DNA of 64,000 bases from an uncultured Verrucomicrobiae bacterium (lineage in GTDB: Bacteria; Verrucomicrobiota; Verrucomicrobiia; Chthoniobacterales; Terrimicrobiaceae): NCBI GenBank assembly GCA_963706955.1, contig CAVPOC010000001.1, forward strand, positions 64,001 to 128,000. The letters are read 5' to 3'. Position numbers and translations under genes: made by a program. This document shows, one piece after another, positions 40,905 through 61,943 of this stretch (positions are counted from its first letter, which is position 1; every line of letters starts with the position of its first letter). The notes beneath the pieces were generated by a model. It had not been told where the DNA came from, searched no databases, and saw only the letters and a program-made list of their open reading frames with translations.

Positions 40905-40936
40905 AAAGTGGATTTTCGCACCAGTTCGCAGAAATA

Positions 40937-41053
40937 ACAGATTCAGAGAATCAAATTTATATCCTGTACAGATGTGCTGAACGCCGCATCTGTTATGTCT
41001 CAAAGAAGTCGCATCTGTGTATAGCCGCGCTCGAGCAGCTGTGTTATTCTGTG
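40937..41053. promoter_or_regulatory. Array of ATCTGT/ACAGAT direct and inverted repeats (candidate MocR operators)
   Basis: ACAGAT at 40937 and 40968; CGCATCTGT at 40985 and 41010; AGCTGT at 41037; inverted pair ACAGATG-N12-CATCTGT. Confidence 0.55.
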
Positions 41054-41061
41054 CAGTGAGA

Positions 41062-42483
41062 ATGTTAGAGGAAAAGCCACTGTACTTGCAGGTAGCCGAC
41101 AATGTCGCCGACCTGATCACCATGGGCAGCCTGAGGGCTGGAGATCGCGTTCCGTCGGTCCGGCGCTTGAGCGGTCAGCAGAACGTCAGCATTCCCACCG
41201 TGTTGCAGGCTTATATGGTTTTGGAAAATCGACGCATGATCGAGGCGCGGCCCAAATCGGGCTTCTTCGTCAAGCCAAGGCTTTCCGACGCGCTGGCCGA
41301 ACCCGTTGCATCGGCACGGACGTCGAAGGTGCCCTGGGCCGATTTTCACCCCTCCATTCCAATTGTTCGTGATCTGGTCAATCCCGACTTGGTGCCCCTT
41401 GGCGGAGCGATTCCCAGCCCGGAATTACTCCCCGGCGCGAAGCTCGCCCGTATCGTCGGGAAGCTGGCCCGAGAGCAGACCGCGGAAACGATCAACTACG
41501 ATCCGGTGCCAGGCTGCCTTAAACTGCGCCGTGAGATTAGCCGGCGCTCGTTGGATTGGGGCTGCCACTTGAGCAGCGAAGAACTGTTGATCGTCAATGG
41601 CGCGACCGAGGGCGTCCATCTTGCCTTGCGAGCGATCACCAAGCCGGGCGATACAGTTCTCATCGAGTCACCGACCTATTATGGTCTCGTTCACATCCTC
41701 AATCAGATCGGACTGAAAGCGGTCGCCGTGCCAGCTTCGGCCCGCGAGGGGTTGAGTATCGAGGAAACCGAGCGTGCGCTCAGCCGAAATAAGGTTGCCG
41801 CCATGACTTTGATTCCGAGCTTTAACAACCCGCTGGGGAGTTTGATGCCCGAGGAGAATCGCCTCGCTCTTTTACACCTCGCCAAGCGACACGGGGTTCC
41901 GATCATCGAAGACGACATCTACGGAGACCTTCAGCATGACGGCACCCGGCCGCGTTGTCTCAAGGCTCTCGACAAGGACAATCTGGTGATCCTTTGCGGC
42001 TCCTTTTCTAAGACGCTCGCTCCAGGCTATCGCATCGGCTACATCTCGCCGGGCCGCTTTTACGACAAGGTGGTCGAGCTCAAAATCGCCACGAATTGGG
42101 GAGGCGCCGCGCTGCCCGCCTTGGCAGTGGCCGAATTTCTCCGTAATGGCGGATACGATAACCATCTCCGCAGAATTCGTCGGACCTATCGAGAGCAGGT
42201 CCAGAAGATGCGCGAGGCGATCGCGACAGGATTTCCCAAGCCACTCCGAATCAGTAACCCGCAAGGCGGCTTTGTGCTCTGGGTCGAGCTCCCTGCCACC
42301 ATCGATGCCATGCAACTCTGCGCGGAGGCTCGCAAGGTCGGGATCAGCATCGCACCAGGCCCGATCTTCTCGCCGGTCGGCGACTTCCGCAATTACATCC
42401 GCCTGAGCTGCGGCTTTCCCTGGACCAGCAAAATCGAACGCGCCATCGGTGTCCTGGGGCGCCTGGCTGCGCGGCTGGCTTGA
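41062..42483 (+). CDS. MocR/GabR-family regulator (GntR wHTH plus PLP aminotransferase domain)
   Basis: PSVR.L....VS..TV.QAY..LE HTH; ESPTY, NNPLG, IIEDDIYG, SFSKTLAPG.RIG. Confidence 0.95.
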   Translation: MLEEKPLYLQVADNVADLITMGSLRAGDRVPSVRRLSGQQNVSIPTVLQAYMVLENRRMIEARPKSGFFVKPRLSDALAEPVASARTSKVPWADFHPSIPIVRDLVNPDLVPLGGAIPSPELLPGAKLARIVGKLAREQTAETINYDPVPGCLKLRREISRRSLDWGCHLSSEELLIVNGATEGVHLALRAITKPGDTVLIESPTYYGLVHILNQIGLKAVAVPASAREGLSIEETERALSRNKVAAMTLIPSFNNPLGSLMPEENRLALLHLAKRHGVPIIEDDIYGDLQHDGTRPRCLKALDKDNLVILCGSFSKTLAPGYRIGYISPGRFYDKVVELKIATNWGGAALPALAVAEFLRNGGYDNHLRRIRRTYREQVQKMREAIATGFPKPLRISNPQGGFVLWVELPATIDAMQLCAEARKVGISIAPGPIFSPVGDFRNYIRLSCGFPWTSKIERAIGVLGRLAARLA

Positions 42484-42516
42484 TCCTCGATCTCCACGTC
42501 GTCGCGGGGGTAATCT

Positions 42517-42632
42517 GGAGCAGCGATCTCCTCATCGTCGAAGGCCCTTGAAGCGTGATCGTCCTCACGGTCGCGGGCGGCCGGCGGGGGGCCCACCACC
42601 TCGGTGCGCCAGGCGGGGACACGCCGCGACAT
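42517..42632. repeat. Degenerate REP copies
   Basis: GGAGCAGCGATCTCCTCATCGTCGAAGG resembles 35646-35674; minus strand TGTCGCGGCGTGTCCCCGCC resembles the right copy at 35680-35704. Confidence 0.45.
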
Positions 42633-42941
42633 TGTTCTGATACCGCCGAGCAGTTTCTCCGTGAATATGAACAGCGTTCATGTTTTCGATGAAGGGATGA
42701 TGTGGCGTTTCCAAGCGAGCGCGGGATGTCTATGCGTCCGCCTTGGGTTTCGTGTGTTCGACTGGATGTGGATAATTGCTCACTGAACTGTGTATCTTTG
42801 CACAGAAATCGCCTCTCGTCGGATCCCCACTCCCAAAGCTTCACAAATCTCAGCGTCCCGGCAGACCAATCACGGTCTTTGCAAATCATGAATTACGTTC
42901 ATCGAAGTGTTATCGAGTGGGAGAGCGGCTGGGTCTCTAAT

Positions 42942-43910
42942 TCAACGCATCGGCGCAGAGGGATGTCGATGGAAGGCCGCTCTGATTGCCGGTTCAGCTC
43001 CGGAGCGTCGGCCGAGATTGGCAACCGCCATACGGCAGAGGCCGATAAACGTTTGCTCTGGCTTCCGAAGTTCACGATTGCCTTGGTGAATGACCGCCCA
43101 TTGCCGCACGATTTTGGAACGTGGTGTCGGCCGCATGATCAGCGAACCTTCGGAGAGTTCCTTCTCGGCCACCCAGGGTGCCATCAGCGCGACGCCAAGC
43201 CCAAGCTTTGCCAGTTGCTTCATGATCTCGAAACTCGGAATTTCAACGTAAGAGGAGAGTCCCACGCCGCTGCGGAGAAAGAAATCCTCCGCCCTTCGAA
43301 AGGTGATACTCTTGCGGTGGTAAAGCAGAAAGTGCTCCTTCGTCAGATCCGTCGTCGTGACCGCGTCCTTCTCCGCCCACGGATGCAATGGAGAGAACAG
43401 GAGATAGAGACGGTCGCGGAAAAGCGGGTGCGCCTTGAGCCCTGCGGGCAGCTTGTCCTCAACAACCACGGCGAGGTCTGCCCGCCCCTCTTCAATTTTG
43501 CTGACCGCCGTTGGGCTGTCTTCAAGACCGACAATAATTGAGACCGTTGGATACGATTCTCGGAACTCCCTCAAAATCGGTGCGAGGACGATCTGCGCCA
43601 TGGCAGTGCTGAAAATTACCGTTAGCTTCGCATGGAACTCCCTGCGGCTGGAGACTGACTCGGTCGCGCGATCGAGGCTGTCGAGAATGCGAAGAACCTG
43701 TCCGAGAAAATGCCGCCCCTCCGGGGTAAGGTGGGTAGTTTTGCCTTTCTTGTAGACCAGGCTGCAACCGAGTTGTTCTTCCAGTCGCCGCATGCCGTGG
43801 CTGATCGCAGATTGCGTTAGGTTGAGCAGAGCTGCCGTTCTGGTGAAACTCCCTACCTGGGCGAGAGTAGCAAAGACCCGCAGCAAGCGAAGGTCGATTT
43901 CTGCCGCCAT
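42942..43910 (-). CDS. LysR-family transcriptional regulator
   Basis: LRLLRVF......GSFTRTA..LNLTQSAIS HTH, LTPEG, substrate-binding domain with LGLGVAL. Confidence 0.95.
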   Translation of the reverse strand: MAAEIDLRLLRVFATLAQVGSFTRTAALLNLTQSAISHGMRRLEEQLGCSLVYKKGKTTHLTPEGRHFLGQVLRILDSLDRATESVSSRREFHAKLTVIFSTAMAQIVLAPILREFRESYPTVSIIVGLEDSPTAVSKIEEGRADLAVVVEDKLPAGLKAHPLFRDRLYLLFSPLHPWAEKDAVTTTDLTKEHFLLYHRKSITFRRAEDFFLRSGVGLSSYVEIPSFEIMKQLAKLGLGVALMAPWVAEKELSEGSLIMRPTPRSKIVRQWAVIHQGNRELRKPEQTFIGLCRMAVANLGRRSGAEPAIRAAFHRHPSAPMR

Positions 43911-43912
43911 AC

Positions 43913-43958
43913 ATGCACTCTATTCATCATTATCCTGAAAAACAATCACTGTGTTCAT
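43913..43958. promoter_or_regulatory. LysR T-N11-A box(es) in the divergent promoter
   Basis: ATGCA-CTCTA-TTCAT at 43913-43927 and a weaker AATCA-CTGTG-TTCAT at 43944-43958. Confidence 0.55.
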
Positions 43959-44004
43959 GGGAAATTTCCGTGCATCGCGCGCTCTGGCGGACTACCTCAT
44001 CGCG

Positions 44005-45084
44005 ATGGCATCACGAGGTCGATCGGCACGCAGGTCACCAGGCCGATTGGTCGGAGCCTTCCGGCTTGGTTACGTCCCGCTGGTTGACGCCGCGCCCTTG
44101 CTGGTGGCGGAAGCGCTAGGTCTCTTTGCCGATCGAGGCCTGACCGTAGAGCTGAGTGCCGAGCTCGGCTGGGGATCGATTCGCGAAAAACTGGTCTACG
44201 GCGAGTTGGACGTCGCTCATGCTCCGGGTCCCCTTGTCTTTTCGATCCTCTTGGGCACGGATTCGAAGGCGTGCCCGGTGAGCACCGACTTTGTGCTCAG
44301 CTTGCAGGGCAACGCGATAACATTATCACGCCGTTTCTGGGACCGTGGCGTTCGCGACGTCCCTACTTTTCAAGCAATGGTGCGAAACGAAGCACCTCAC
44401 AAACCGGCTTTTGCCGTGGTGGCACGTTTTTCGAGTCATCATTTCTTGTTGCGCAGGTGGTTACGGAGCACGGGCCTAGACCCAGATCGCGATGTCCGTA
44501 TGGTCGTTTTGCCGCCGCCCCTGGTTGCCGAGCATCTAAAGGAGGGGCAGATCGACGGGTTCTGTGCGGGCGAGCCGTGGAACTCTGCGGCGGCGCTTTC
44601 CGGAGAGGGTTGGGTGGTTGCAACGAGCCTTTCACTCGCTCCGCGGCATCCTGAGAAGGTCCTGCTCGTCCGCGACGAACTGATTTTTCGTCAGCCGGAA
44701 GCCTATGGCATCTTGCGAACGGCGATGACGGAAGCCTGTCGTTTCTGTGATCAAAGTGAGAACCGCCGGAGTGTGGCGGACATTCTTCACGAGGCACGCA
44801 TCTTTCCTGTCTCGAAAGAAGTTCTGATGAACTCGCTCGTCGGACCGTTCCACACGGGTGTTGCCGATTTGGGTTCGGCAGAGCCATTTCTCGTCTTTTA
44901 TAGGGATGGCGCGAACGAAGCGACGGAGGAGCGTGCCAAATGGTGCCTGGAGGCCGTCTTGGAGACCGGCGCCTTAAAGGCCGACAGTCGAACTCGTAAA
45001 CTTTGCCTGGAGGCATTCCTCGACAAGCGCGAGCGGAGCCTTCCGCCGTCCGCGCGGACTACCCCGCATTCGACTGCTAAGTAA
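44005..45084 (+). CDS. Cytoplasmic CmpA/NrtA-family protein, NasS-like nitrate/nitrite sensor
   Basis: LGYVPLVDAAPL, GNAITLS, LPPP, DGFCAGEPWN, HPEKVL; no signal peptide. Confidence 0.8.
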   Translation: MASRGRSARRSPGRLVGAFRLGYVPLVDAAPLLVAEALGLFADRGLTVELSAELGWGSIREKLVYGELDVAHAPGPLVFSILLGTDSKACPVSTDFVLSLQGNAITLSRRFWDRGVRDVPTFQAMVRNEAPHKPAFAVVARFSSHHFLLRRWLRSTGLDPDRDVRMVVLPPPLVAEHLKEGQIDGFCAGEPWNSAAALSGEGWVVATSLSLAPRHPEKVLLVRDELIFRQPEAYGILRTAMTEACRFCDQSENRRSVADILHEARIFPVSKEVLMNSLVGPFHTGVADLGSAEPFLVFYRDGANEATEERAKWCLEAVLETGALKADSRTRKLCLEAFLDKRERSLPPSARTTPHSTAK

Positions 45085-45110
45085 TCTAAAGTCTCAGGTT
45101 GGCGAGAAAA

Positions 45111-45126
45111 AGGCACGAAACGTGCT
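45111..45126 (+). promoter_or_regulatory. Putative sigma-54 (-24/-12) promoter of the nrt-nir-nas operon
   Basis: AGGCACG-AAAC-GTGCT, i.e. GG-N10-GC spacing. Confidence 0.55.
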
Positions 45127-45339
45127 CTAGCCTAAGCACGACAACGGCAATTGCGCAGGGCATGAACTTCGAAACTCGCCAGGAGTGGGCTGGAGAGGGG
45201 ACTCACCTCTGGCGTGCCAGCCTCATCTTAGAACTGTCTGGCGCGCAGTTAATCGAGGGGAAAGGGAACCACCGCAGGAACGTTACCTGCTCTTATCCCA
45301 GCTCCTCCACGAGAATTAGGGAAGGGAAATTTATTAACC

Positions 45340-46659
45340 ATGGATAAAGACAGGAATCGGGAACTCTCCACGAGTCGCGGCACGTTGAGGGTCGAGGGAC
45401 ACTCGGGCATCACGCGGCGTCGATTTCTGTCGGGATCGGCCAAGGGAATTGGCCTGTCGGCCTTACTGAGTGGACTGCCGACCGGGTGGGTCGGCTCCGT
45501 GTTTGCAAGCGATGCCCCGGAAACGTCGGACCTTAAGATTGGCATCATTGCGTTAACAGATTGTTCAACCATCGTCATCGCGCATGAGAAGGGCCTCTTC
45601 AAAAAGTATGGGATCAGTTCGGTGGTGAGCAAGGGAGCCAGCTGGGCAGCCATTAGGGATGCCCTCTCCAACGGCGATATCCAAGCGACGCACATGTTGT
45701 TAGGCATGCCGATCGCTTCGACGATGGGGCTGGCCGGATCACCAAAGAAGCCGATGATCGTTCCATGGCTGCTAAACCGCAACGGGCAAGCCATCACGTT
45801 ATCAAACAAGTATAAGGGGAAAATCACCGAGGATCCGGCAACGCTCAAGCCGTTCGTTGACGAAGCGAAGGCCAGCGGGATGCCACTTTCGTTTGCCATG
45901 ACCTTTCCGCCGGGGACGCACGCGATGTGGATACGCTATTTTCTCGGCGCAGGTGGGATAAACCCGGATGCCGACGTCGCCCTCATTACCGTTCCACCGC
46001 CGCAGATGGTTGCCAATATGAAGATCGGCAAGATGGATGGGTTCTGTGTGGGCGAACCATGGAACGCTCGCGCGATCGCGGACGATGTTGGTTTTACCGG
46101 CATCACCACCCAGGCAATCTGGAAAGACCATCCTGAGAAGGTCTGCGCGTTCACGGCAGAGTTTGCGGACGCCAATCCAAAAACCATCAAAGCCGTGGTG
46201 AAGGCGTTGCACGAAGCGAGCGTTTGGGCAGACGATTTGAACAACCGGCCGGAATTGGCGAGGATCGTAGCCTCTCCCACCTACATCAATTGCCCGGAAG
46301 ACGTTATTCTAAGCCGCCTCCAGGGGAAATACATCATGGGTGACGGCCGCAAATTTCGCGATCCCAACTACATGATTTTTAGTGAGCGCAACTGCAACTA
46401 TCCGCAACCGAAATACGCCAAGTGGTGGCTGACGCAGTTTCGTCGTTGGGGGTTCGTTGAAGCAGCCCCCGACTACGAAGGCATATCTAAGCAGGTGATG
46501 CGGGCAGACATCTATGAAGAGGCGATGAAGGAGCTTGGCTATTCTCATGCGGGCCTTAGCGATGCGTCGGAAACGCTCTTCGACAACGTTCCGTTTGATC
46601 CCAAAGGCGACCTGGAAGCCTATGCTAAGAGCTTTTCCGTTCATAACCTAAAGGGTTAA
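45340..46659 (+). CDS. nrtA: Nitrate/nitrite ABC substrate-binding protein, Tat-exported
   Basis: TRRRFL twin-arginine signal plus h-region; IALTDC, NRNGQAIT, FAMTFPPGTH, DGFCVGEPWN, HPEK. Confidence 0.9.
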   Translation: MDKDRNRELSTSRGTLRVEGHSGITRRRFLSGSAKGIGLSALLSGLPTGWVGSVFASDAPETSDLKIGIIALTDCSTIVIAHEKGLFKKYGISSVVSKGASWAAIRDALSNGDIQATHMLLGMPIASTMGLAGSPKKPMIVPWLLNRNGQAITLSNKYKGKITEDPATLKPFVDEAKASGMPLSFAMTFPPGTHAMWIRYFLGAGGINPDADVALITVPPPQMVANMKIGKMDGFCVGEPWNARAIADDVGFTGITTQAIWKDHPEKVCAFTAEFADANPKTIKAVVKALHEASVWADDLNNRPELARIVASPTYINCPEDVILSRLQGKYIMGDGRKFRDPNYMIFSERNCNYPQPKYAKWWLTQFRRWGFVEAAPDYEGISKQVMRADIYEEAMKELGYSHAGLSDASETLFDNVPFDPKGDLEAYAKSFSVHNLKG

Positions 46660-46661
46660 AG

Positions 46662-47978
46662 ATGGCGGACCTCGCTCATCCCCAGGGAAGCGGACACAGG
46701 TCCGATAAGCCGGTTTCCCTTCGTTCGACGGAGCTTTTGGCCCGACGCGGCGAAGCTCTCGACCTTTCCCGGCTGCTTGCACGAAGTCGCTCGCCTCAGC
46801 TGTCGGTAGCTGGCGATCCCGAACTCGAGCACCTCACGTTCGGAATTCTCCCGTTGACCGATTGCGCCCCCATTGTCATCGCGCATGAAAGGAAGTTGTT
46901 CGAACGGTCGGGCATCACCTCAAGCGTGGCCAAATTTGGGAGCTGGACAGCCAGCCGGGATGAGCTCTTAAGCGGAAGAGCGCACGCAGCGCAGATGCTC
47001 TTCGGCATGCCTGTCGCCGCGGCCGTCGGCAAACTCGGCACGGAGCATAGACCGCTCGTTATTCCCTGGATCCTTAATCGGAACGGCCAGGCGGTCACCA
47101 TATCGGTCAGACACTCTCGGCGGGTAAGTTCAAGCGCCCGCGACCTTCGCGCCTTCGCGCAGGAGTGTCGCGAGAAGGGTCGGCCGATGGTCTTTGCCAT
47201 GACGCTTCAACCGGGGACGCACGCTATGTGGCTTCGCTATTGGCTCGCGTCCGGAGGCATCAATCCGGATACCGATGTTGCTCTGATCACGATCCCCCCG
47301 CCCATGATGGTCGCGAACATGCGGGCGGGGCGGCTTGACGGATTTTGCGCGGGCGAACCATGGAATGTGAGGGCCATCGAGGAGGAACTTGGTTTTACGG
47401 CGGTGCTCAGCGAGGAAATCTGGCCCGATCATCCCGAAAAGGTCCTCGCGTTCACGGAGGATTTTTCCGAGGCCTACCCGAATTCGGTGAAGGCAGCTCT
47501 CAAAGCCCTCCACGAAGCTTCCCTCTGGTGCGACGAGGAAAGTAACCGCGATGAGTTGGCAGCAATTCTCGAGCAACCCCAATACCTTGCTTGTCCTGCC
47601 AAAACCATCAAGTCACGCCTGGGCCCGGTGGTCGACTGGGCGGGCGGTCGCACCGCGCAGAATCTGCGCGGTTTGACGTTCTCTCGTCGCGAATGCAACT
47701 ATCCACAGCCGAAATTTGCCGTCTGGTGGTTGTCGCAATTTCGCCGCTGGGGCATGCTGCCCGCCGCGCCTGATTATCTCGGGGTGGCCACGCGCGTGAT
47801 GCGCCCCGATTTTTACGAGGCTGCCATGAACGAGCTGGGCGTCCCACATGGGCGGCCGGAATTTACTTCCGAAACCCTCTTCGATGGCAAGGTTTTCGAT
47901 CCGGCGCAGCCGGAGAAATACGCCGCAGAATTCGAGATTACCGCTCTCAAGCGAAAGCCGGCACTCCATGAATCATGA
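46662..47978 (+). CDS. Second NrtA-like protein without a recognisable export signal
   Basis: Closely parallels 45340 (LPLTDC, NRNGQAVT, PGTHAMW, GEPWN, HPEK, NYPQPK..WWL.QFRRWG) but has a hydrophilic N-terminus. Confidence 0.85.
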   Translation: MADLAHPQGSGHRSDKPVSLRSTELLARRGEALDLSRLLARSRSPQLSVAGDPELEHLTFGILPLTDCAPIVIAHERKLFERSGITSSVAKFGSWTASRDELLSGRAHAAQMLFGMPVAAAVGKLGTEHRPLVIPWILNRNGQAVTISVRHSRRVSSSARDLRAFAQECREKGRPMVFAMTLQPGTHAMWLRYWLASGGINPDTDVALITIPPPMMVANMRAGRLDGFCAGEPWNVRAIEEELGFTAVLSEEIWPDHPEKVLAFTEDFSEAYPNSVKAALKALHEASLWCDEESNRDELAAILEQPQYLACPAKTIKSRLGPVVDWAGGRTAQNLRGLTFSRRECNYPQPKFAVWWLSQFRRWGMLPAAPDYLGVATRVMRPDFYEAAMNELGVPHGRPEFTSETLFDGKVFDPAQPEKYAAEFEITALKRKPALHES

Positions 47979-48859
47979 AAGAATCAATCCTTAAGAAAAT
48001 TGATTGGCTGATCCTCCCGGCGATCGGCATCGCCGTTTGCATCCTGCTTTGGAACTTGATTGCCGGCAAGGAAGTGAGGAAGGAAGCCCTGGATGACTTT
48101 GGGGACAAGGTGGTCAAGGTCCAGCGGGTTGGAGTTTCCGCGGACCTTCCCTCGCCAGCCGAAACGTGGATGAAGAGCAAGCCCTACATCCTTGAGCCGT
48201 TCGCCAAGCGCGGCGAGTTGGATCAGGGGATTCTAAGCTTTACGTGGCTCTCCTTGAAATTGGTCGCGCAAGGCTACGTCATCGCTCTGCTTGTCGGCAC
48301 GCCGATCGGATTCTTGCTGGGTCTTTCCAGGACCTTCGCGAAAATGTTCGACCCGATCTTCCAAGTGCTTCGTCCGGTCTCCCCTTTGGCATGGCTGCCG
48401 CTTGGGATGGTGCTCTTTCTTGGCGCGAAGCTAACGATTCCCGGGGTTGGCCTCAGTTACTCGGCCTCGGACCTCGCCGCCATTTTCACGATTGCGATCT
48501 GTTCGATGTGGCCAACGGTTCTAAATACCGCGGTGGGCGTCCGCGCAATTCCTCAGGATTACCTTAACGTTGCCAAAGTCCTTAAACTCTCGAGGACCAA
48601 GACGCTTTTCAAGGTCCTCTTGCCGGCCACATTGCCGTACATGTTTACGGGATTTCGCCTTTCCCTGGGGATCGCCTGGCTCGTCATCGTGGCTGCGGAA
48701 ATGCTCACGGGGAAGCCGGGAGTCGGCGGCTTTCTCTGGCAGCAGTACAATGCCCTAAGCTATGCCCACATTATCTTGTGCATCCTCACGATCGGCATCG
48801 TCGGCTTCGTGCTCGACCGGTTAATGAGCATGGTCGAAGCGCAGTTTAAGACCGCTTGA
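47975..48859 (+). CDS. nrtB: Nitrate ABC permease
   Basis: DPIFQVLRPVSPLAWLP, NTAVGV, EAA-like loop, GIAWLVIVAAEMLTG. Confidence 0.93.
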   Translation: MKESILKKIDWLILPAIGIAVCILLWNLIAGKEVRKEALDDFGDKVVKVQRVGVSADLPSPAETWMKSKPYILEPFAKRGELDQGILSFTWLSLKLVAQGYVIALLVGTPIGFLLGLSRTFAKMFDPIFQVLRPVSPLAWLPLGMVLFLGAKLTIPGVGLSYSASDLAAIFTIAICSMWPTVLNTAVGVRAIPQDYLNVAKVLKLSRTKTLFKVLLPATLPYMFTGFRLSLGIAWLVIVAAEMLTGKPGVGGFLWQQYNALSYAHIILCILTIGIVGFVLDRLMSMVEAQFKTA

Positions 48860-48863
48860 GATC

Positions 48864-49781
48864 ATGACCGTGCTCGAAGTTAAGAACGTCTCCAAGGGGT
48901 TTGGTCCAAAGGGCAAGCGCACCGAGGTGCTCGAAGACATTACCCTTCAAGTCGAACGGGGGGAATTTCTCGCAATCATCGGCTATTCCGGCGCCGGCAA
49001 AACGACGCTGATGTCCCTGCTGGCCGGCTTGATCAAGCCAGACACCGGTTCGATCAAGTTGCACGGCAAACCGATGGAAGGACCTGGGCCAGACCGTGGG
49101 ATAGTTTTTCAAAACTACTCGCTGCTCCCGTGGCTGACCGTCTATGACAACATTGCGCTGGCGGTGGACCAGGTTTTCTCCAACTGGTCCGCTGAGCGAC
49201 GCCGTCAGCACATCGAAAAGCAAATTGCCACGGTGAAGCTGACCCCGGCGCGCGACAAGATCCCTCGCGAACTCTCCGGCGGAATGCGCCAACGAGTATC
49301 CGTGGCACGGGCGCTCTCCCTCCAGCCCGAGCTGCTTTTGCTTGATGAACCGCTCAGCGCTCTGGATGCGCTCACCCGCGCTAATCTGCAGGATGAAATC
49401 AACCGGATTTGCCAGGAAGAGAGGAAGACGGTCATTCTGATCACCAATGATCCCGATGAAGCCATCCTTCTGGCGGATCGGGTCATTCCGCTGACCGCCG
49501 GACCGCGCGCCACCCTCGGACCTTCCATCCCCGTAACCATCCCCCGTCCGCGCTCGCGCAGGCTGATCAACGAGAGCTACGATTTCAAACAGACGCGCAA
49601 TGAGGTGATCGAGTACCTTCTCATGGCCACCGATAAGCGCAAGGTCGCTATAAGTAAGAAGCTTATCTTGCCGGATCTTTTGCCTGAGGACCTCACCGAG
49701 CCGCGCTCGATCTTTGGCAGAAAACGCCGACCGCGCAGGCGCAGTGAGCAGAAGCGCGAGACGGTCGAGGTGGCCGTATGA
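48864..49781 (+). CDS. nrtC: Nitrate ABC ATP-binding protein (no C-terminal NrtA-like domain)
   Basis: [39 protein letters not shown]. Confidence 0.88.
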
Positions 49782-50642
49782 GTGATCGGGCTTATCTCGA
49801 ACTGTGGGATCTTACCAAGAGCTATCCCACCCGACAGGGTGAGGCGGTGATCGTTAAGAACATTAGCTTCAAATTCCGCAAGGGAGAGTTCGTTACGATT
49901 ATCGGCCACTCCGGTTGCGGCAAATCAACGATCCTAATGATGGTGGCCGGACTAAGCACGGTGACTTCCGGCGGCATCGTTCTGGCGGGGAAGGAGCTCA
50001 ACGGGCCTGGTCCTGACCGCGGTGTTGTTTTCCAGTCGCCTTCGCTTCTTCCATGGATGAGCGCCTTCGAAAACGTCATGCTCGGGGTAGATCAGGTATT
50101 CCACACGGCCGAACGTCACGAGCGGCGACTTATCGGCGAATACTACCTGACTCTCGTCGGACTCGCCGACTCGATGCATAAGCTTCCCGCAGAGCTTTCC
50201 CAAGGCATGCGCCAGCGGGTGGGCATCGCGCGTGCCTTTGCCCTTGCTCCGAAAATGTTGTTGCTCGACGAGCCATTTGGAATGCTCGATTCCCTCACGC
50301 GATATGAGCCTTCAGGAAGTTCTGATCAGTCTTTGGCGTCGAGAGCGGATTACGGCCATGATGGTCACCCACGATGTCGATGAAGCGCTCTTTCTCAGCG
50401 ACCGGATCGTTTGCATGACCGATGGGCCAGCGGCCGGTATTGGCGAGATCGTGGAAGTCGATTTCCCCCGACCTCGCTTTCGCAAGGAAGTGATGGAGCA
50501 TCCCGATTATTACAAGCTTCGCGCACAGCTCATCGAATTTCTCGAGCTTCGCGCGCATCGTCCGTCTGGAGGGGTTGCCCCACCCGGTGTTGAGAGGAGC
50601 CCGGAGTCGAAACAAGAGCAGCGCGCGATTGCGATGACCTAG
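49778..50642 (+). CDS. nrtD: Nitrate ABC ATP-binding protein (frameshift near 50310)
   Basis: [30 protein letters not shown], then in a shifted frame LQEVL...[14 protein letters not shown]. Confidence 0.88.
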
Positions 50643-50659
50643 CATCTGAGTCTCACGCG

Positions 50660-52304
50660 ATGACTAAGATACCTGTGATTCCCGAAACGGCACCATTCGA
50701 TGCCATGCAGCGCATGTGGCTGAACGGCTTTCTCGCGGGTCTGTTCAGCTCAGAGCCCACCGCGATCGCGGTGTCGGCGGCCACCTCGTCGTCGCTGGGT
50801 CCATTGCTCTTTTTGTTCGGCTCTCAAACGGGAACTTCCGAGGGACTCGCACGACGCTTCGCGAAGGAAGCCAAGAAGGTGGGCTTTGAGACGCGCGTCA
50901 TCGGAATGGAGAGCTATTCGACCGATCGATCTTACTAAGGAAAAGCGTCTGATCATCATCACAAGCACCTACGGAGATGGGGAGATGCCCGATAATGCGC
51001 AAACCTTTTGGGACTATCTAAAGAACGGGACCGCTCCGCGCCTTGAGCATCTGGAATTTTCGGTCCTGGCCCTCGGCGATCGCAACTACTCTCAATTCTG
51101 TCAGGCAGGCAAGGCCTTCGACGCGCGGCTTGAGGATTTGGGAGCCAAGCGGATCCATCCTCGCACCGATTGTGACGTGGATTGCGAGGGTCCTTCAGTG
51201 GAGTGGTTCAACGGTTTACTCAGGTCGTTGGAGGGTGCTGTCCCTTCTGCGGGGACGAGTCAAAACGCCGTCACTTCCACCTCAACGGTTGAGAGCACGC
51301 CTTCCTTTGGCAAGGCCAACCCATTCCTTGCGGTTCTGAAGACGAATCGCGTTTTGAATGCCCCAGGTTCTGCAAAGGAGACGCGGCACCTCGAGATCAT
51401 CCTCGAAGGTTCCGGACTCGAGTATGAGGTCGGCGATGCCTTGGGAGTCGTGCCGACCAACTGTCCGGATTTTGTCCGCGAGATCTTAGACGCTGCCGGT
51501 CTTGACGGTGAGGAGGCCGTGAAGGCCCCCGATAACGAGGAGATGCCTTTACGGATGGCCCTGTTACGAAAGTTTGACCTGAAGTCCTTTTTGGCCGATC
51601 TGCCGGCAAAGGCTGCCTCAGCGGCGGATTTTGCGGCGCCGTTGCGAAAGCTGCAGCCGCGTCTCTATTCGATTTCCTCAAGCTCGAAAGCCCATCCGGG
51701 AGAAGTGCATCTCACCGTGGCCGTCGTCCGCTATGAATTGAATGGTCGTGCTCGCAAGGGCGTCTGCTCGACGTTCTTTGCCGATCGGGTCGGAGCGGAC
51801 ACTAAGGTCCCTGTATTCGTGCACCGGTCGCCGAGCTTCAAACTTCCCGCCGATGGATCCAGGCCCATCATCATGGTGGGCCCCGGCACGGGCGTTGCTC
51901 CATTCAGGGCCTTTCTCGAGGAGCGCCGGGCAGTCGCCGCGACCGGAAGGAACTGGCTTTTCTTCGGAGATCAGAAAGCTCTCTGCGACTTTCTCTATCG
52001 TGAGCAGCTCGAGGCGATGAAGCAGGATGGACTACTGACGAGGCTCGACACCGCCTTCTCCCGCGATCAACCAGAGAAGATCTATGTTCAAGATCGGATG
52101 ATCGAAAACGCTGGTGAGATCTGGTCGTGGCTGCAGGAAGGAGGATACTTCTATGTCTGCGGCGATGCTCAGCGCATGGCTAAGGACGTCGATGCCGCGC
52201 TCCACAAGATCGCCGAAACGGCCGGTCAGCTCTCAACGAACAGGCCGGGGAGTATCGTCAAGCAACTTAAGTTTGAGAAGAGATATTTGCGTGATGTGTA
52301 TTAG
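50660..52304 (+). CDS. CysJ-like NADPH diflavin (FMN/FAD) reductase (frameshift near 50922)
   Basis: Flavodoxin GSQTGT and STYGDGEMPDNA; RLYSISS, GVCS, GPGTGVAPFR, AFSRDQ.EKIYVQ, YVCGDA..MAKDV, RYLRDVY. Confidence 0.9.
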
Positions 52305-52379
52305 AAAACAAAGCCAGGCTGGCCTGTTGTTGGGGACGTGTGCGCTCCCTCACGTGCTCTTTATGCCATGTGAGAATCG

Positions 52380-54120
52380 ATGACGATTACGCCGATCAAA
52401 GAGATTGCGGGGAAACCATTGAACGAGGAGCAGACGACTTATCTGACGGGCTTCTTCGCAGGGATGGCGCAGCGTGCGGTCGTCTTTGCCGATTTCCTCT
52501 CCGAAGCTAAGGGCGCGGCAAACTCTTCCTAAAGCCCCAGGGGAGAAAACAGTGAGGAGGAAGTCCAGCTCACCGCGGAGGAGCGCATTAAGAATGAGGA
52601 ACACCCTCTCGATTCTTACTATCGCCTCCTCGAAAATGCGAGAAGCAACCAGGCGCCGGACAAGGAGGAAACTTATCGATTCAAATGGAATGGCCTTTTT
52701 TATCTCTCTCCTGTGAAGGACGCCTTCATGGCGCGCCTTCGAATTCCGGGAGGGATCGTGAAAACGTATCAGCTTCGCGGCCTTGCCCAGACAGCAAAGG
52801 ATCTGACGAGCGGTTACTGCCAGATTACCACGCGCGCAAACTTCCAGATGCGTCTGATTCAGCCCAAGGATGCCCCCGAAGTGCTTAGACGCATCCAAGC
52901 CGTTGGACTTCATACCCGCGGCACCGGAGCTGACAATATCAGAAACCTGACGTCGAACCCGACGGCCGGAATCGATCCGCAAGAGCTAATCGATTGCACC
53001 CCCTATGTGCGCGAACTCGCAGACTTCATCCTTTCGCATCGCGAATTCTATAATCTGCCGCGCAAGTTCAACATTGCGTTCGACGGAGGAGGGTTGATCG
53101 GGTCGGTTGAGGATACGAACGACATCGGTGTGAAGGCCGTCAAGGTCGAAGACGATGTTTTCTTCCGCGTTGCCCTTGGAGGGGCGACCGGCCACAAGTC
53201 GTTTGCGCGTGATCTCGGCGTGATCGTGCCACCGCAGGAGATTGTCAAGGTAGTCATCGCCATTGTTCGCGTCTATGTGAGGAACGGCAATCGCGGAGAT
53301 CGAAAGAAGGCGCGCCTTAAGCATCTTCTCGATAAATGGACCATGGAGGAATACCTCGCGCGAGACGGAGAAAGTCCTCGGCGGCCAGCTTAAGCCGCAG
53401 TCCCTTCGACCCGAGGGCGATTGTCTACCCTGGCGCTGAATTGCCGCATAGCCATATCGGTGCTTACCCTCAGAAACAAACGGGTCTGCACTATCTCGGT
53501 GTGGCATTGCCGGCGGGACAGATTACGCCCGCGCAGATGTTTCGCGATTGCCGATCTGGCGGATAACTACGCCTCCGCCGAGATCCGGCTGACCGTCTGG
53601 CAGAACTTTATCATTCCAAACATTCCCGAGGCCTATGTCGAAACTGTCAAGAAAGCAGTCCGCAAGATGGGCTTTGACTATCAGCAATCGAATATTGCCA
53701 GCGGCGTCATCGCGTGCACGGGCAACAAGTATTGCAAGTTTTCCTCCACAGATACCAAAGGACATGCCTTAGCTTTGATCAAATATCTCGAGAAGCGGAT
53801 CAAACTCGATCAGCCGGTGAATATCCATTTTACCGGCTGTCCGAACTCATGCGCCCAACACTATATGGGGGACATCGGGATGTTGGGAGCGAAAACCCGA
53901 GACGGTCGAGAGGCGTATCATGTCTTTGTTGGCGGAGGATTTGGGACGAACGCGGCGTGCGGGAGACAGATTTACCAAGCCCTGCCGTTCGACGAATTGA
54001 ACGGTGCTGTGGAAAAGATTCTCCTCGCTTACCTCAAGCACCGCCAGGGCTACCGAGTCATTTCAGTCCTTTACGATGCGACACGATGTAAACTCTCTGC
54101 AAGTGCTTTTCCAGGAATGA
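52380..54120 (+). CDS. nirA: Siroheme/[4Fe-4S] nitrite reductase of the NirA family (in-frame TAA at 52530 and about 4 frameshifts)
   Basis: [51 protein letters not shown]...TGCPNSC; ends LFQE* overlapping the next ATG. Confidence 0.88.
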
Positions 54121-55725
54121 CCGGACTTAGCCTTGAAGTTAATCTCATTGATGAACTTCTTGCCGAGCAACAACGGCTCACGCCTGTTGAACGCTTCGCG
54201 AAAAGGCACGATCGTGCAGATTTTCCTGCTCAGGCGCACTACTATCGCGATTTAATCCCCTCCTCGCTGCCTGCACGGCGGCAACAATACGCGTTTGCCG
54301 TCGATCTCGACGTCTGCTCCGGCTGCAAGGCTTGTGTCAGTGCTTGCCATTCGCTGAATGGACTTGAGGAGGACGAAACCTGGCGCGACGTCGGACTGAT
54401 TACCGGCTCCGAAGCCGGAAAGCCGTATCTGCAGACGGTCACCACGGCTTGCCATCATTGCCTTGAACCCGCCTGCCTCGAGGGTTGCCCGGTTCTCGCT
54501 TACGATAAGCATCCCGAAACCGGAATTGTGCGCCATCTCGATGACCAATGTATCGGCTGCCAATACTGCACCATGAAGTGCCCCTACGACGTGCCGAAGT
54601 ATTCGCACCGTCTCGGGATCGTCAGGAAGTGCGACATGTGCACGGATCGTCTGGCTAGTCGGTGAGGCTCCCGCTTGTGTGCAGGCTTGCCCGCACGAAG
54701 CGATCGCCATTCGGCTGGTGGATGTTGCCGAAATCAACGCAGCGGCGTCGGCGGGCGCGCAGATCGTTCCGGGCGCATTTGATTCCGGCTATACCAAACC
54801 GACGACGAAGTATTTCTCGAAGAGAGGAATTCCGAAGAATGCCGAACCCGCCGACGCACATGCGCTGCGTCTGGAACACCCCCACTGGCCATTGATTATC
54901 ATGCTTCTCTTCTCGCAGCTCGCCGTGGGTATGTTTGTCACGAGTGCAGTCGATGGCGATGGTGAGTGGATCGTCGTCACTGTCCTGTGGCTTTGGCAGC
55001 GACAATCGGGTTTGCTACGCTTAACGCCGGGCTGGGTGCATCGGTTTTTCACCTGGGACGGCCGCTCGGCGCCTGGAGGTTTTTCCTTGGCCTGCGGACA
55101 TCATGGATGAGCCGGGAGATTCTGGCATTTGCAATTTTTGCGGCCGTCGCATTTCTTGGCACCGCGCTTTGCTGGATTGCTCCGGCCAGCGCTCTACGCC
55201 CGAGCCGGGCTGGCCGGCGCAGCCGCTGGTCGGCCTCCTGGCGGTCTTTACTTCGGTAATGATCTACGCGGATACACGCCGCGCGTGGTGGGCGCTAACT
55301 TCGACTGCGGCGAGATTCTACGGTGCGACCGTTATCCTGGGCTTAACCGCGGTCGCTGCGGTCTTGAGTCCGATCGCGGCGTCTGAGGCGGCGTTTCGCG
55401 TCGCTATGGCTCTCTCGATCGCGGCGCGGACAATATTTTTCGTCTGGGAAACACTAAGCAGCGTGCGAGCCGTGGCGGATCCTTCCAGTCCGATTCACCG
55501 CTCCGAGAAAACGATCCGCACGCTGCTGCCGTGGTTTGGTCGCGTCCGCGTGACCGTATTTGTTCTAGGAACACTTGTTTCCGTGGATGGCGCTCATCAC
55601 GAGCGCACCGGTGGCAATCGCTGCCGCAGGTCTGGCGCTGGCGCTTTCAGTGCTCGGTCATGTGCGTCGAGCGCTTCGGATTTTTTACAGCTGTGACGGC
55701 CCCCCGCATGCCCGGAGGCGTATGA
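54117..55725 (+). CDS. Fused 4x[4Fe-4S] ferredoxin (DmsB-like) and DmsC/NrfD-type membrane anchor (at least 5 frameshifts)
   Basis: [47 protein letters not shown]; then [28 protein letters not shown] and TM segments; ends RMPGGV*. Confidence 0.82.
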
Positions 55726-57984
55726 CGCAACTCAGGGAAAAAAGGGATAGCGTTGCGCGATTGGAACCGCTGCGTGAAGCGTTTGCCCTTCGAGCTTGGA
55801 ACGGACCTTTAACCGAAGAACTCATCCGCAACCCTGGTAAATTTGGGCTTGGGCAGGTGCCGGCACGACTGGCGCCGGATGCGACCACGACGATGGTCTG
55901 TGGCTTCTGTTCGACTGGCTGCGGCCTTAATATTCATATGCGCAACGGACAGGCGATCAACCTAAGTGCGGACAGCAGCTACCCAGTCAATCTGGGAATG
56001 GCCTGTCCCAAGGGATGGGAGGCGCTCACCCCACTGTCCGCTCCCGATCGCGGCACCACCCCAATGGTCCGGGCGGTCCGCGGCGGTCCCCTTGAAGCGT
56101 GCGATTGGGAGCGCGCCCTGATCTTGTTCTGCGAGCGATTCAAAGAGCTTCGGCGCAACTATGGTCCGGAGTCGGTTGCTTTCCTGAGCACAGGACAGAT
56201 CACTACTGAGGAGATGGCCTTCCTCGGATGTCTGTTCAAGTTCGGCATGGGATTTGTGCACTGTGACAGTAACACCCGCCAGTGCATGGCCACATCGCAT
56301 GTCGCCTACAAAGAGTCCTTCGGCTTCGACGCGCCGCCCTTTACCTATGCGGATTTTGAACTCTCGGATGTGTTGGTCTTTGTCGGGGCGAATCCGTGTC
56401 TTGCTCATCCCATCATGTGGCAGCGCGTCATGCGCAATCCGAAAAAGCCTGAAATTCTCGTGGTCGATCCTCGCACCACCGAAACTTCGATGGCGGCGAC
56501 GCAGCACTTTTCCATTCGGCCGAAGTCGGACCTGGTGCTGCTTTACGGTCTTGCGAATCTGCTGATCGCCAGCGATTCGATCGACCGCCCTTTCATTGAT
56601 GCGCACACTTCCGGCTTCGAAGAATTTGCTCGCTTTGTCAGCGCGTTCACCCCGGAGCGTGTCGCTCGGGAAACCGAACTGAGTGTCGCCCAGTTGGAGC
56701 GATTTGCCCGAACAATTGGACAGGGACAGGCCGTCTCCTTTTGGTGGACGATGGGAGTGAATCAGGGCCACGAATCGACGCGGACGGCGCAGGCGATCAT
56801 CAATCTGGCGCTAATGACGGGCAACATCGGCCGCCCTGGAACTGGTGCAAATTCGATTACCGGGCAGTGTAATGCGATGGGCTCGCGGCTGTTCGCAAAC
56901 ATCACCAGCCTTCTCGGTGGCCACAACGTGGACGAAGAGATGCACCGCCGTAAGATCTCGAGAGTATTGGGAATTCGAGAAGAAGCTATCCCTCGTGGCC
57001 CTTCGATGGCCTACGATCAAATCGTGCGAAGCATCGCCGATGGCAGGATCAAAGGTCTCTGGGTCATCGCGACCAACTCATCCCACTCGTGGATCCATCA
57101 AGATGACTTTAACAACCTCATCAACAAACTCGATTTCCTCGTTGTGCAGGACATGTATCCTACCACCGAGACCGCACAGCGAGCGGATCTCTACTTTCCG
57201 GCAGCGGGCTGGGGCGAAAAGGAAGGCACCTTGATCAACTCCGAGCGCCGAATCGGACTCGTCAAGAAAGTGCGACGCGCGCCGGGGCGGGCACTTTCCG
57301 ATTTCCATATTTGCCAGTTGATCGCGCACTATTGGGGATGTGAGGGGATGTTTGCACGGTGGACTTCGCCCGAAGCTGTCTTTCAAACCTTGAAAGCAGT
57401 TTCTGAAGGGATGCCCAACGATATCACTGGCGTCCGCGACTATGGCATGATCGATGAATGTGGCGGCATCCAATGGCCGCTCAGCGATGCCGATGTCTCT
57501 CGATTTGCCAGTGCTAAGTTTCAAGTTCCGTCGGAAAGGCGATTGTTCGAGGACGGCAAGTTCTTTACCCCTGATCGTCGGGCACGTTTCGTTTTCGAAC
57601 AACCACGCATGGCACCGGAGCAAGTCGATGCAGAATATCCTTTTCTCCTCATGACCGGACGCGGGACATCGTCGCAGTGGCACACCAACACCCGGACGGG
57701 CAAATCGGATGTGCTGCGCAAGCTTTATCCCCCCAACTGCTATGTGGAAATAAATCCTCACGATGCTGAGAAGTTGGGCATTCGGAAAAACATCCGTCGT
57801 GAGAATCGCATCCCGGCGTGCGCAGGTTCGAGCGACGGCATTTGTGACGCCGACGATCCGACCTGGGCAGCTCTTCATTCCCATGCACTATCGCGAAGCA
57901 AACCGGTTGACCTTTCCGTCCTTTGATCCCTACTCCCGTCAGCCGTCTTACAAGGCATGCGCGGTGCAGGTTGAAGCGATTTGA
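55722..57984 (+). CDS. nasA: Molybdo-bisPGD assimilatory nitrate reductase catalytic subunit (frameshift near 57790)
   Basis: CGFCSTGC...MACPKG, NTRQCM (Mo-ligand Cys), [45 protein letters not shown]; no Tat signal. Confidence 0.9.
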
Positions 57985-58057: not shown

Positions 58058-58624
58058 CTACAAATCGTCAGGGGAGTTCCAGTTGGTAAACAGAGCCGAT
58101 TGCGAATCGGAAATCTCCTTTGCGTTCATCATTCCTGCTTTAAGAGCTTCGTCAATGAGACGCTGAAACGAGCGATCGTTGCCTGCGAGAATCTCTTCGA
58201 CAAGCGGAAGGATTTTGAGCGGGTAGACCGCAGCTGTCCCGCAATAAAATCCCTCATGGAGCGGCACAGTTCCGGCGCATTCAGATTCTTCGATTAATTC
58301 CCGAAGAAAGTTGACCGTTATTCGTGGCATGTCCACGGCCAGCGTCACCAAAAAGCCGGAGGCAGTCTGCCGCAAAGCGGCTTCAAGACCACCAAGAGGC
58401 CCGAGGCCGGCAACCCGATCATGAACGAACGTCCACGGTCCTGGTGGGAATTCCATACCCGACTGCACTGAGAAGAAGAGCTGATCCGGACCGAGTTTGG
58501 CCAACTTGTCGATCTGAAAGCGCCACATTGGCATGCCTTCATACTCGATCGAAGCCTTGTTAGTTCCCATGCGACTCGATCGGCCACCGGCGAGCAAGAC
58601 AGCGGCGAATTTTTCATGGTTCAT
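58058..58624 (-). CDS. mobA: Molybdenum cofactor guanylyltransferase
   Basis: LLAGGRSSRMG.NKA, GPLGG, AVDMP, NWNSPDD. Confidence 0.9.
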   Translation of the reverse strand: MNHEKFAAVLLAGGRSSRMGTNKASIEYEGMPMWRFQIDKLAKLGPDQLFFSVQSGMEFPPGPWTFVHDRVAGLGPLGGLEAALRQTASGFLVTLAVDMPRITVNFLRELIEESECAGTVPLHEGFYCGTAAVYPLKILPLVEEILAGNDRSFQRLIDEALKAGMMNAKEISDSQSALFTNWNSPDDL

Positions 58625-59087
58625 CGACCTTGAGGATTCCATCGGTGAGGATTCTCGCGCGGAGGCCGCCGCGCCCTTTCATGGCGGCTTCCGCGCCTTC
58701 GCAAAAGGCCTGATTCATCCAGGAACAGGGCGCAGATTCCTGCGTTCCTTCAAAGAACACTCCTTGAACCTCGAACTCTTTACCAATCCAGAAGTTTAGA
58801 TCAATGCCACGCGTTATAACATTACGGCGGAAGGCGCCGGGATTTTTGTCTGTGACCCCGAAGCGACGGCAGAGATCCACATACGTCTCCCACGCGAAAA
58901 AGGTGATCTGGCCCTTGTAATCGTTCTTATGGTCGAAATAACGATCGCCGACGAGTCCCTTGCCAGCAATGCACTCGACCTGAGCCACCGAAACGCTAGG
59001 ATGCTCGCCCGCGGGAAGACCGTAATGTCCGACAAAATTGTGAGCCGGCGAAATATAGATGGCGGCAATTTGCACGTGTGAAGCCAT
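58614..59087 (-). CDS. MOSC-domain protein
   Basis: GLVGDRYF, QITFF, FRRNVI..GIDL, SAPCSWM, GRGGLRARIL..G. Confidence 0.85.
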   Translation of the reverse strand: MASHVQIAAIYISPAHNFVGHYGLPAGEHPSVSVAQVECIAGKGLVGDRYFDHKNDYKGQITFFAWETYVDLCRRFGVTDKNPGAFRRNVITRGIDLNFWIGKEFEVQGVFFEGTQESAPCSWMNQAFCEGAEAAMKGRGGLRARILTDGILKVDEP

Positions 59088-59279
59088 GCTAAAAAAACTA
59101 TTTGATTCTCGGCAAACTGCGCCGTTTTTCTTGAGAAGTTGTTCGAGCTTGTCCTTGGTTCCTCTGCGAACTCCTTGTCCGCTCTTCTGAAGCACCTTCA
59201 GCTCCAGCGACTTTAGACCGGACGGGGATTCTTTGAACTTTACGGGAGTGGGCTTAGAGCGAAAATTGCACTGCATTCG

Positions 59280-61896: not shown

Positions 61897-61943
61897 GCCC
61901 GTTGCAATTGGCTTTTTTAGAGGGTATTATCAATGGGCCGACG

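Follow-up and report, generated by a model that had tools for sequence, protein, structure and literature searches.

As far as is known, assimilatory nitrate reductases are soluble and receive their electrons from ferredoxin or NAD(P)H, and the question here is where the electrons come from, and how transcription is controlled, in a nitrate-assimilation cluster of eleven genes whose operon interior holds no NasT/NasR, NirB or ferredoxin gene. The cluster occupies positions 42942..57984 of a 64,000-nucleotide stretch of DNA (the window; C1:64001-128000 of a 4.16-Mb genome that is 92.5% complete) from an uncultured Verrucomicrobiae soil bacterium, whose nearest named relative is a Terrimicrobium metagenome-assembled genome (MAG) built from short reads, with 95% DNA identity. 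An initial annotation, made from the letters alone, had given exactly these boundaries, had stated that the above partners are missing from the operon interior, and had read the order as lysR divergent from a nasS-like gene, then nrtA, an nrtA-like copy, nrtB, nrtC, nrtD, a cysJ-like gene, nirA, a dmsBC fusion and nasA. Pfam, NCBIfam and tblastn searches with intact proteins of relatives found all eleven genes in this order and bear out these assignments. The model that we favor, with a probability of roughly two in three for the whole, combines import by NrtABCD, a quinol-fed DmsBC-NasA complex, an NADPH-CysJ-NirA chain and LysR-gated sigma-54 promoters; we infer its electron routes and regulator roles throughout. 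As most of the frameshifts in the window genes trace to the assembly (see below), the operon was handled as intact, and the proteins analyzed were those of the same-genus locus L034.

The DmsB-DmsC fusion (54117..55725, forward strand; frameshifted in the assembly) consists of four [4Fe-4S] motifs followed by an eight-helix NrfD-type anchor, and public annotations call it 'formate dehydrogenase iron-sulfur subunit'. In an alignment of 150 sequences (67 from loci plus 83 of 120 listed homologs; mean column identity 49%), the 16 cysteines of the four N-terminal motifs were invariant or nearly so, and in the membrane part H312, S329, W330 and E334 were kept in 150/150 and R518, the arginine of helix 8, in 149/150 sequences. 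H312, S329, E334 and R518 line up with E. coli DmsC H65, S82, E87 and R271, of which H65 and S82 are listed at the quinol site in the accessible part of the source, where changes of H65 block quinol oxidation (PMC8076601). The structure model (predicted local distance difference test, 90.5) has eight membrane helices and matched ActC (Z 22.2, root-mean-square deviation 3.2, 277 aligned) and PsrC (Z 18.9, deviation 4.2, 246 aligned); bd-oxidase subunits reach similar structure scores against it. The anchor loops carry on average 16.3 lysines plus arginines on the DmsB side versus 2.1 on the far side, with the DmsB side higher in 150/150, compared with 4 versus 6 on the same sides of E. coli DmsC, for which helix limits were set manually. 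A twin-arginine translocation (Tat) motif was found in none of the 150 sequences. Because of the charge bias and the lack of a Tat motif, the DmsC-type anchor is predicted to be inverted and cytoplasm-facing, as proposed for SoeC. For menaquinone, the source genome carries genes of the futalosine pathway, menD giving no match above cut-off. A search of plasmids yielded no full-length DmsBC fusion.

The nasA gene (55722..57984, forward strand; frameshift at ~57790) encodes the catalytic subunit of a nitrate reductase of the molybdenum bis-pyranopterin guanine dinucleotide (Mo-bisPGD) type. In a set of 101 distinct sequences at ≥55% identity, RQCM and GQCNAMG occurred in 101/101, which is nitrate-reductase-type, with Cys-Met at the Mo ligand; a Tat motif occurred in 0/101, and the extension past the core was ≤20 residues in all 101, leaving no C-terminal electron-input domain. 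The best solved match is Desulfovibrio NapA, and the protein stays below every NCBIfam cut-off (NasA 439/1000, NasC 402/1100, NapA 326/904 bits). In a quick tree (45 rows, SH-aLRT support, midpoint root, the root being unsure), the clade stands apart from proteobacterial NasA, NapA and FdhF. By analogy, DmsBC-NasA would work like an inverted complex of the DmsABC/SoeABC type in nitrate assimilation, as a member of no named family: cytoplasmic NasA would dock on the DmsB-DmsC fusion, the anchor lying inverted in the membrane like SoeC, and menaquinol would be oxidized at an inward-facing site, with electrons passing via the four [4Fe-4S] clusters to the molybdenum center to yield nitrite.

How closely the two subunits belong together became apparent from a sample of 400 Verrucomicrobiota genomes (≥90% complete). 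The fusion is present in 43 of them, and the NasA clade in the same 43 (at least 827 bits versus at most 541 for the rest, two fragments set aside), making DmsBC-NasA the commonest nitrate-reductase-like enzyme of the sample (43/400). In 38/40 loci of those genomes nasA lies directly 3' of dmsBC (exceptions G139 and G380), as it does in 67/69 top-hit loci with room, the other two lying just under the distance cut-off and 11 further loci lacking room. Outside Verrucomicrobiota, going by title, 12 Planctomycetota loci and one Myxococcota locus carry the pair, and there is a lead to Pseudomonadota clusters; a further locus, titled Bifidobacterium (L068), was placed with the verrucomicrobial ones, which it resembles. 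Cultured carriers of the cluster are Spartobacteria LR76 and Rubritalea profundi. NirA was found in 50/400 genomes, including 40 of the 43 with DmsBC-NasA. Among the ten genomes with NirA and without that pair, the cysJ-like gene adjoins nirA in 8; in one of the remaining two the contig ends inside nirA, and the other has a distant NirA without a cysJ-like gene. Conversely, six loci combine DmsBC-NasA with NirB/NirD, without NirA and CysJ, and four of five further genomes checked were without NirA of the PRK09567 kind found in the cluster. Since each pair persists when the other is missing, CysJ tracks NirA and DmsBC tracks NasA. The neighborhood comparison suggested by the initial annotation shows the gene order conserved across relatives, and in the window ATGA overlaps link nrtA2/nrtB, nrtC/nrtD, nirA/dmsBC and dmsBC/nasA; the arrangement is far beyond what chance can account for. 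As to the quinol-fed nitrate reduction that had been proposed, anatomy and one-to-one co-occurrence support it as a putative electron route.

The second reduction step would be carried out by NirA, a siroheme/[4Fe-4S] nitrite reductase (52380..54120, forward strand; several assembly frameshifts), turning nitrite into ammonium with NADPH electrons supplied by the CysJ-like diflavin reductase (50660..52304, forward strand; frameshifts at ~50925 and ~52254) in place of ferredoxin. NirA passes PRK09567 (701 bits versus a cut-off of 523) and matches plant nitrite reductases at 1e-80 compared with 1e-36 to 1e-23 for sulfite reductases. The four siroheme/cluster cysteines and RKFN were present in 39/39 sequences, whereas the separate CysI of the source genome, encoded by a cysI-cysH pair located elsewhere, has RKFK; we take the asparagine of RKFN to mark nitrite-type enzymes, in agreement with the PDB alignment and with this CysI. 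NirA is thus nitrite-type, whereas the initial annotation had named a grouping with sulfite reductases as damaging to its reading. The flavoprotein, with flavodoxin, FAD and NADPH domains, passes PRK06214 and not TIGR01931 (602 bits versus 668), i.e., it is not an E. coli-type CysJ. A similar N-terminal helix, QxxW/YLxGFxAG, opens both proteins. Docking through these helices is put forward only as a hypothesis, since in E. coli, according to the accessible part of the source, the N-terminus of CysJ serves octamer assembly, whereas CysI is bound by way of the FNR domain (PMC11947256); a complex prediction for NirA with CysJ residues 1-400 (scores 0.21 and 0.02, mark 0.32) speaks neither for nor against docking. 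A Sulfitobacter plasmid carries the pair as well, and so does a Methylocystis nas operon that includes nasT and nasS. The proposed route from NADPH via the CysJ-like protein to NirA is favored by co-occurrence (the 8/10 genomes above), but it is not special to this lineage: as the pair is found in Alphaproteobacteria too, with named NCBI families, it is not new to Verrucomicrobia. The NirA of Bradyrhizobium (B. japonicum) is treated as ferredoxin-dependent in the accessible part of PMC4724949, where the term bll4570 goes unmentioned.

Two side observations concern the same diflavin module. Open frames of ~2,485 residues lie at G372:C2 ~1346139-1353600 (reverse strand, L245) and at G393:C2 near 1023000, and the former encodes the large subunit of glutamate synthase fused to the same CysJ-like module, suggesting that this module replaces ferredoxin more generally. 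The source genome has another cysJ-like gene (C8:828229-829383, L114) that comprises the FAD/NADPH part only (384 residues), with a flavodoxin-like match far away at C8:438900; the housekeeping CysJ may be split.

Turning to regulation, the cluster opens with a LysR-type regulator gene (42942..43910, reverse strand), its group being associated with nitrate loci of Verrucomicrobia; it is divergent from the gene for a NasS-like protein without signal peptide (44005..45084, forward strand), an arrangement seen in 39/41 loci with room (two of the 39 being from the same genome). ANTAR domains were found in 0/52 cluster-carrying genomes, with a positive match in the control plasmid, and a NasT protein query gave weak matches only (best E 4e-6, mostly to the N-terminal part). 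NasT stands beside the same enzymes in two Planctomycetota loci and NasR beside NirA-CysJ in G341, so the enzymes can move between regulators. A profile of the LysR group matched 12/12 class-level genomes with DmsBC-NasA, 3/4 with NirA-CysJ only, 1/16 without DmsBC, 0/8 outside the class, 0/3 in which NasC is of another kind, and a single genome where NasA is a fragment, all 44 having been picked with their status known; the LysR tree had two outgroups only. The NasS-like protein has the C-terminal regulatory domain of cyanobacterial NrtC as its closest solved relative and keeps the nitrate-site residues W, H, P, G and K in 45-48 of 48 sequences, by a residue numbering that we take to carry over from NrtA; it may be a nitrate sensor.

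The lysR-nasS gaps share two elements. With up to two mismatches, ATGAA-N5-TTCAT occurs in 31/36 de-duplicated gaps (shuffle mean 3.9, maximum 9), and the sigma-54-type GG-N10-GC in 25/36 (shuffle mean 2.0, maximum 7). Across nitrate loci, 59/74 palindrome-promoter pairs are spaced 55, 64, 65 or 66 bp, palindrome upstream, and a module with spacings of 54-56 and 64-67, picked after inspecting the data, is present in 29/40 loci, compared with 2, 2 and 0 for off-phase spacing sets of equal size. The module recurs 5' of nirA, narK and porin genes far from lysR; it was found in 0/13 non-verrucomicrobial loci, and the four such genomes tested also lack the LysR group. The canonical TT before GC is present in 1/55 module promoters and in the amtB-glnK promoter, suggesting that the former are weak sigma-54 promoters needing help; the source genome encodes four enhancer-binding proteins as well as RpoN, whose gene is frameshifted in the assembly. 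Given the sigma-54-like -24/-12 elements of the promoters, these probably require an enhancer-binding activator too. The LysR-based sensing of the initial annotation was incomplete: control would probably be by LysR plus sigma-54, not by LysR alone, and the NasS-like protein may do the sensing. Transcription would start from weak sigma-54 promoters requiring a nitrogen-responsive enhancer-binding protein, and the dedicated LysR would bind the palindrome 55 or 65 bp upstream and gate these promoters, probably in answer to nitrate or nitrite sensed by LysR itself or by the NasS-like protein; we infer both binding and logic from the motifs and their observed correlation with LysR. LysR proteins acting on nitrogen-regulated genes are known in cyanobacterial NtcB and Pseudomonas AtzR.

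Several observations weigh against the model that we favor, and they bear on the rival explanations as well. Related genomes do not count as independent samples. In G139 and G380, nirA and dmsBC are adjacent with nasA and the cysJ-like gene elsewhere; CysJ is missing from L038, L092 and L093, which have NirA and sufficient room; and in 10/37 loci cysJ adjoins nasA, directly on its 3' side, and not nirA. The last point, together with NasA-CysJ fusions in Tsukamurella and Alphaproteobacteria (described in the accessible part of PMC4013037), keeps a rival wiring alive in which NasA receives its electrons via the DmsB clusters from a soluble donor, be it the CysJ-like reductase or a different one, and DmsC is a mere membrane tether. 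The nearest NasA outgroup, on a long branch, would also fit: the gene for the Cetobacterium catalytic subunit (42.6% identity, same GQCNAMG) is accompanied by genes for a 4Fe-4S and an FAD protein. We nevertheless consider a soluble donor quite improbable, in view of quinol-site residues that stay invariant in 150/150 sequences despite the modest mean column identity, and of DmsBC-NasA occurring without nearby NirA/CysJ in the six NirB/NirD loci, G393 and G372, four such genomes being without this NirA. The Cetobacterium gene set further resembles the C. ljungdahlii nar cluster (CLJU_c23710-30), described as dissimilatory in the accessible part of PMC9124969, and the midpoint-rooted tree, its root being unsure, does not join our clade to proteobacterial NasA. 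DmsBC-NasA might be mainly a respiratory or fermentative electron sink, passing electrons from quinol to nitrate at low oxygen, with assimilation as a by-product; its architecture is that of respiratory iron-sulfur molybdoenzymes, its sister enzyme resembles the dissimilatory cluster (by gene composition alone), and globin and nitric oxide-related genes occur in some loci. Such a sink is improbable given the co-located high-affinity ABC importer and assimilatory NirA (40/43 genomes) and the sigma-54-like promoters similar to that of amtB-glnK; an inward-facing quinol site would, moreover, be electroneutral. Finally, automatic annotation makes the molybdoenzyme a formate dehydrogenase, and NirA a sulfite reductase: the fusion carries the formate dehydrogenase name, the flavoprotein is named 'sulfite reductase subunit alpha', and the top NCBIfam raw score of NasA among the hidden Markov models is formate dehydrogenase alpha (451.8 versus 439.3 bits for archaeal NasA, neither passing). 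We reject both namings as very improbable indeed, since formate dehydrogenases in the same alignment have Cys-His and RGQNNVQG instead of Cys-Met and GQCNAMG, and since NirA has the matches, RKFN motif and separate CysI described above.

On the regulatory side, the complete palindrome plus sigma-54 module was not found anywhere in the source genome, and in the same genus the nasS palindrome comes without a sigma-54 element and the nrtA sigma-54 element without a palindrome; the choice of spacings after the fact counts against the module too. The enzymes might work as proposed while another factor binds the palindrome, or LysR might be only autoregulatory, with the NasS-like gene regulating transport and not transcription. 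The NasS-like protein does have a transport-regulating NrtC domain as its best solved match, LysR lacks a NasS-like neighbor in several loci, and G139 and G380 have LysR and no module in the regions read. Against this stand the module copies before nirA, narK and porin genes distant from lysR, the lack of the module in the 13 non-verrucomicrobial loci and of the LysR group in the four such genomes tested, and the near-constant divergent pairing with the NasS-like gene; on balance we regard this explanation as unlikely, though it deserves to be taken seriously. The LysR-gated reading that we prefer can be pushed further, to a hitherto undescribed Verrucomicrobia nitrate regulon that unites an inverted quinol-oxidizing complex, a helix-docked NirA-diflavin reductase pair, and a NasS-type sensor rewired from an RNA antiterminator to a LysR co-activating weak sigma-54 promoters at fixed helical phase. 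In this full form the proposal is tentative, and we would sooner expect one of its parts to fail than all to hold.

Among the closest known systems is SoeABC of Allochromatium vinosum and Aquifex aeolicus, sharing, according to the accessible part of PMC8076601, a cytoplasm-facing molybdoenzyme and iron-sulfur subunit, an inverted DmsC-type anchor and an inward quinone site. It differs in that B and C are fused here, the catalytic subunit is nitrate-reductase-type, and electron flow is proposed to run from quinol to substrate in nitrogen assimilation; SoeA and SoeC were compared by description only. E. coli DmsABC and T. thermophilus PsrABC have the same four-cluster B subunit, eight-helix NrfD-type C subunit and conserved His/Ser/Glu/Arg, but are Tat-exported and outward-facing, whereas DmsBC-NasA lacks a Tat signal and is biased in charge the other way. 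With the soluble assimilatory reductases (cyanobacterial NarB, Klebsiella NasA, Paracoccus/Bradyrhizobium NasC, Bacillus NasC), our enzyme shares cytoplasmic Mo-bisPGD, Cys-Met ligation and gene neighbors, namely a siroheme nitrite reductase together with NrtABC(D) or NarK. It falls below their NCBIfam cut-offs, lacks a C-terminal input domain and has a membrane partner; they draw electrons from ferredoxin or from NAD(P)H flavoproteins (such as Flp in B. japonicum, in the accessible part of PMC4724949). A CysJ-like flavoprotein is nonetheless encoded in the operon here, where it tracks NirA. The three-gene clostridial nar cluster and its Cetobacterium equivalent are alike in the 4Fe-4S partner and unlike in having an FAD oxidoreductase, no membrane anchor and a role described as dissimilatory (PMC9124969, accessible part). 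The alphaproteobacterial NirA (PRK09567) and PRK06214 pair is likewise adjacent, with a similar N-terminal helix in both proteins, but the Methylocystis operon is under NasS-NasT and its nitrate reductase has an FAD partner. Compared with NasS-NasT or NasR antitermination, the NasS-like sensor is alike, whereas the ANTAR partner was not found in the 52 genomes and a DNA palindrome phased with a sigma-54-like promoter would take the place of RNA antitermination.

A literature search, whose coverage left out most subscription journals, found no description of DmsBC-NasA or of the regulon, and a design spread across Verrucomicrobia, with membrane-anchored NasA and LysR at sigma-54-type promoters, seems undescribed. 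A 2026 Limisphaera paper, in its accessible part, labels the genus's enzymes NarB and ferredoxin-dependent NirA. If the model is true, a quinol-fed assimilatory reductase would blur the divide between assimilatory and respiratory enzymes, and cells could produce nitrite for growth without giving up the proton pumping of the NADH-to-quinone step. The clade is likely misread in surveys of the nitrogen cycle in soil and water, since it passes no curated family cut-off and its partner is often named as a formate dehydrogenase subunit. The palindrome plus sigma-54 module would offer a precise, testable case of LysR at sigma-54 promoters, and likewise of a NasS-like sensor that does without ANTAR.

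With regard to assembly quality, nrtD, cysJ, nirA, dmsBC and nasA are all frameshifted in the window, mostly by one-base insertions. Intact nrtD, cysJ and nirA frames are found in the 95%-identical short-read MAG, and the extra base is missing from short-read contigs in the runs of all four studies at 52254, 52519, 53361, 53382, 54052, 54982, 55194 and 55222/3, and in 3/4 runs at 50307 and 50925. The dmsBC break at ~54657 and the nasA break at ~57790 are not among the contig matches listed, the evidence there being the intact relatives. Most frameshifts in nrtD, cysJ, nirA and dmsBC are assembly errors; typA and rpoN of the source genome are frameshifted likewise. The intact MAG frames and the contigs without extra bases rule out a pseudogene reading of the operon.

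Further regulatory elements can be placed in the window. A palindrome ATGCA-N5-TTCAT (43913..43927; T-N11-A, a LysR-type box) adjoins the lysR start, with a weaker repeat 22 bp downstream, and no sigma-54 element was found 65 bp downstream of it in the same genus. A sigma-54-like -24/-12 element, AGGCACGAAACGTGCT, lies upstream of nrtA (45111..45126, forward strand) and is kept in all five same-genus genomes examined. Perfect ATGAA-N5-TTCAT palindromes occur at 42667..42681, probably as the leftover promoter of an OprB-type porin gene of relatives, and at 42888..42902, so that of seven perfect copies genome-wide (4.16 Mb) two fall in the gntR-lysR gap; the count within the window, 4 matches versus 1.64 expected, is marginal (5/100 shuffles reach 4). 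In L117, L130, L131 and L128 a porin gene of the OprB family, which has a palindrome module to itself, stands between gntR and lysR; this gene has decayed in G001 and is gone from window positions 42484-42941, leaving the two perfect palindromes. At 40491-42483, a MocR/GntR regulator gene is divergent from a DUF2917 gene, and the regulator is kept upstream of lysR in the genus.

The transport genes, all on the forward strand, comprise nrtA (45340..46659; exported binding protein), its paralog nrtA2 (46662..47978; nrtA-like, 52% identical to NrtA), the permease gene nrtB (47975..48859; TIGR01183 cut-off passed) and the ATPase genes nrtC (48864..49781; assigned by NCBIfam) and nrtD (49778..50642; assembly frameshift at ~50307). 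Nitrate would enter through NrtABCD, which as a family imports nitrate. NrtA has a twin-arginine signal in 24/24 sequences scored and Synechocystis NrtA (2G29) as best solved match. The paralog, found only in some lineages, lacks this signal (4/4 scored) and best matches the NrtC regulatory domain among solved structures, for which reasons it may act in the cytoplasm as a separate protein that restrains the transporter.

On the 3' side, mobA and a MOSC-domain gene for molybdenum cofactor maturation (58058..59276, reverse strand) often adjoin the cluster in relatives. They are followed, in the same genus only, by a SorA-like sulfite oxidase-family gene, a glycosyltransferase gene and a Rieske ferredoxin gene (59280-62252); the Rieske gene (61902-62252), considered as a NasG-like donor, was dismissed as a general part as it occurs only in three same-genus loci. 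In other nitrate loci (L058, L147, L163 and others), a fusion of PP2C phosphatase and protein kinase recurs beside narK and an alginate-export-family porin gene after nrtD. A single-domain globin is encoded inside nitrate clusters L043, L045, L046, L051, L090, L152, L153 and L195, in several of them following an FAD oxidoreductase, which recalls nitric oxide detoxification by Bradyrhizobium Bjgb-Flp. G129 (L195, L196) and G438 (L204) carry a second subfamily of DmsBC-NasA at greater distance (35-38% identity, NTTLCMSS motif), which in G129 adjoins nif-like genes and is near an intermediate NasA. The source genome also has a second nitrate-reductase-like cluster at C6:103500-111700 (L115), with genes for a flavohemoglobin, a Crp/Fnr-like regulator, a 374-residue membrane protein without Pfam match, a molybdoenzyme, a 4Fe-4S protein, a Rieske protein and NarK; this molybdoenzyme is Bacillus NasC-like (854 bits versus a cut-off of 1100), and the same clade occurs in G311, G224 and G404.

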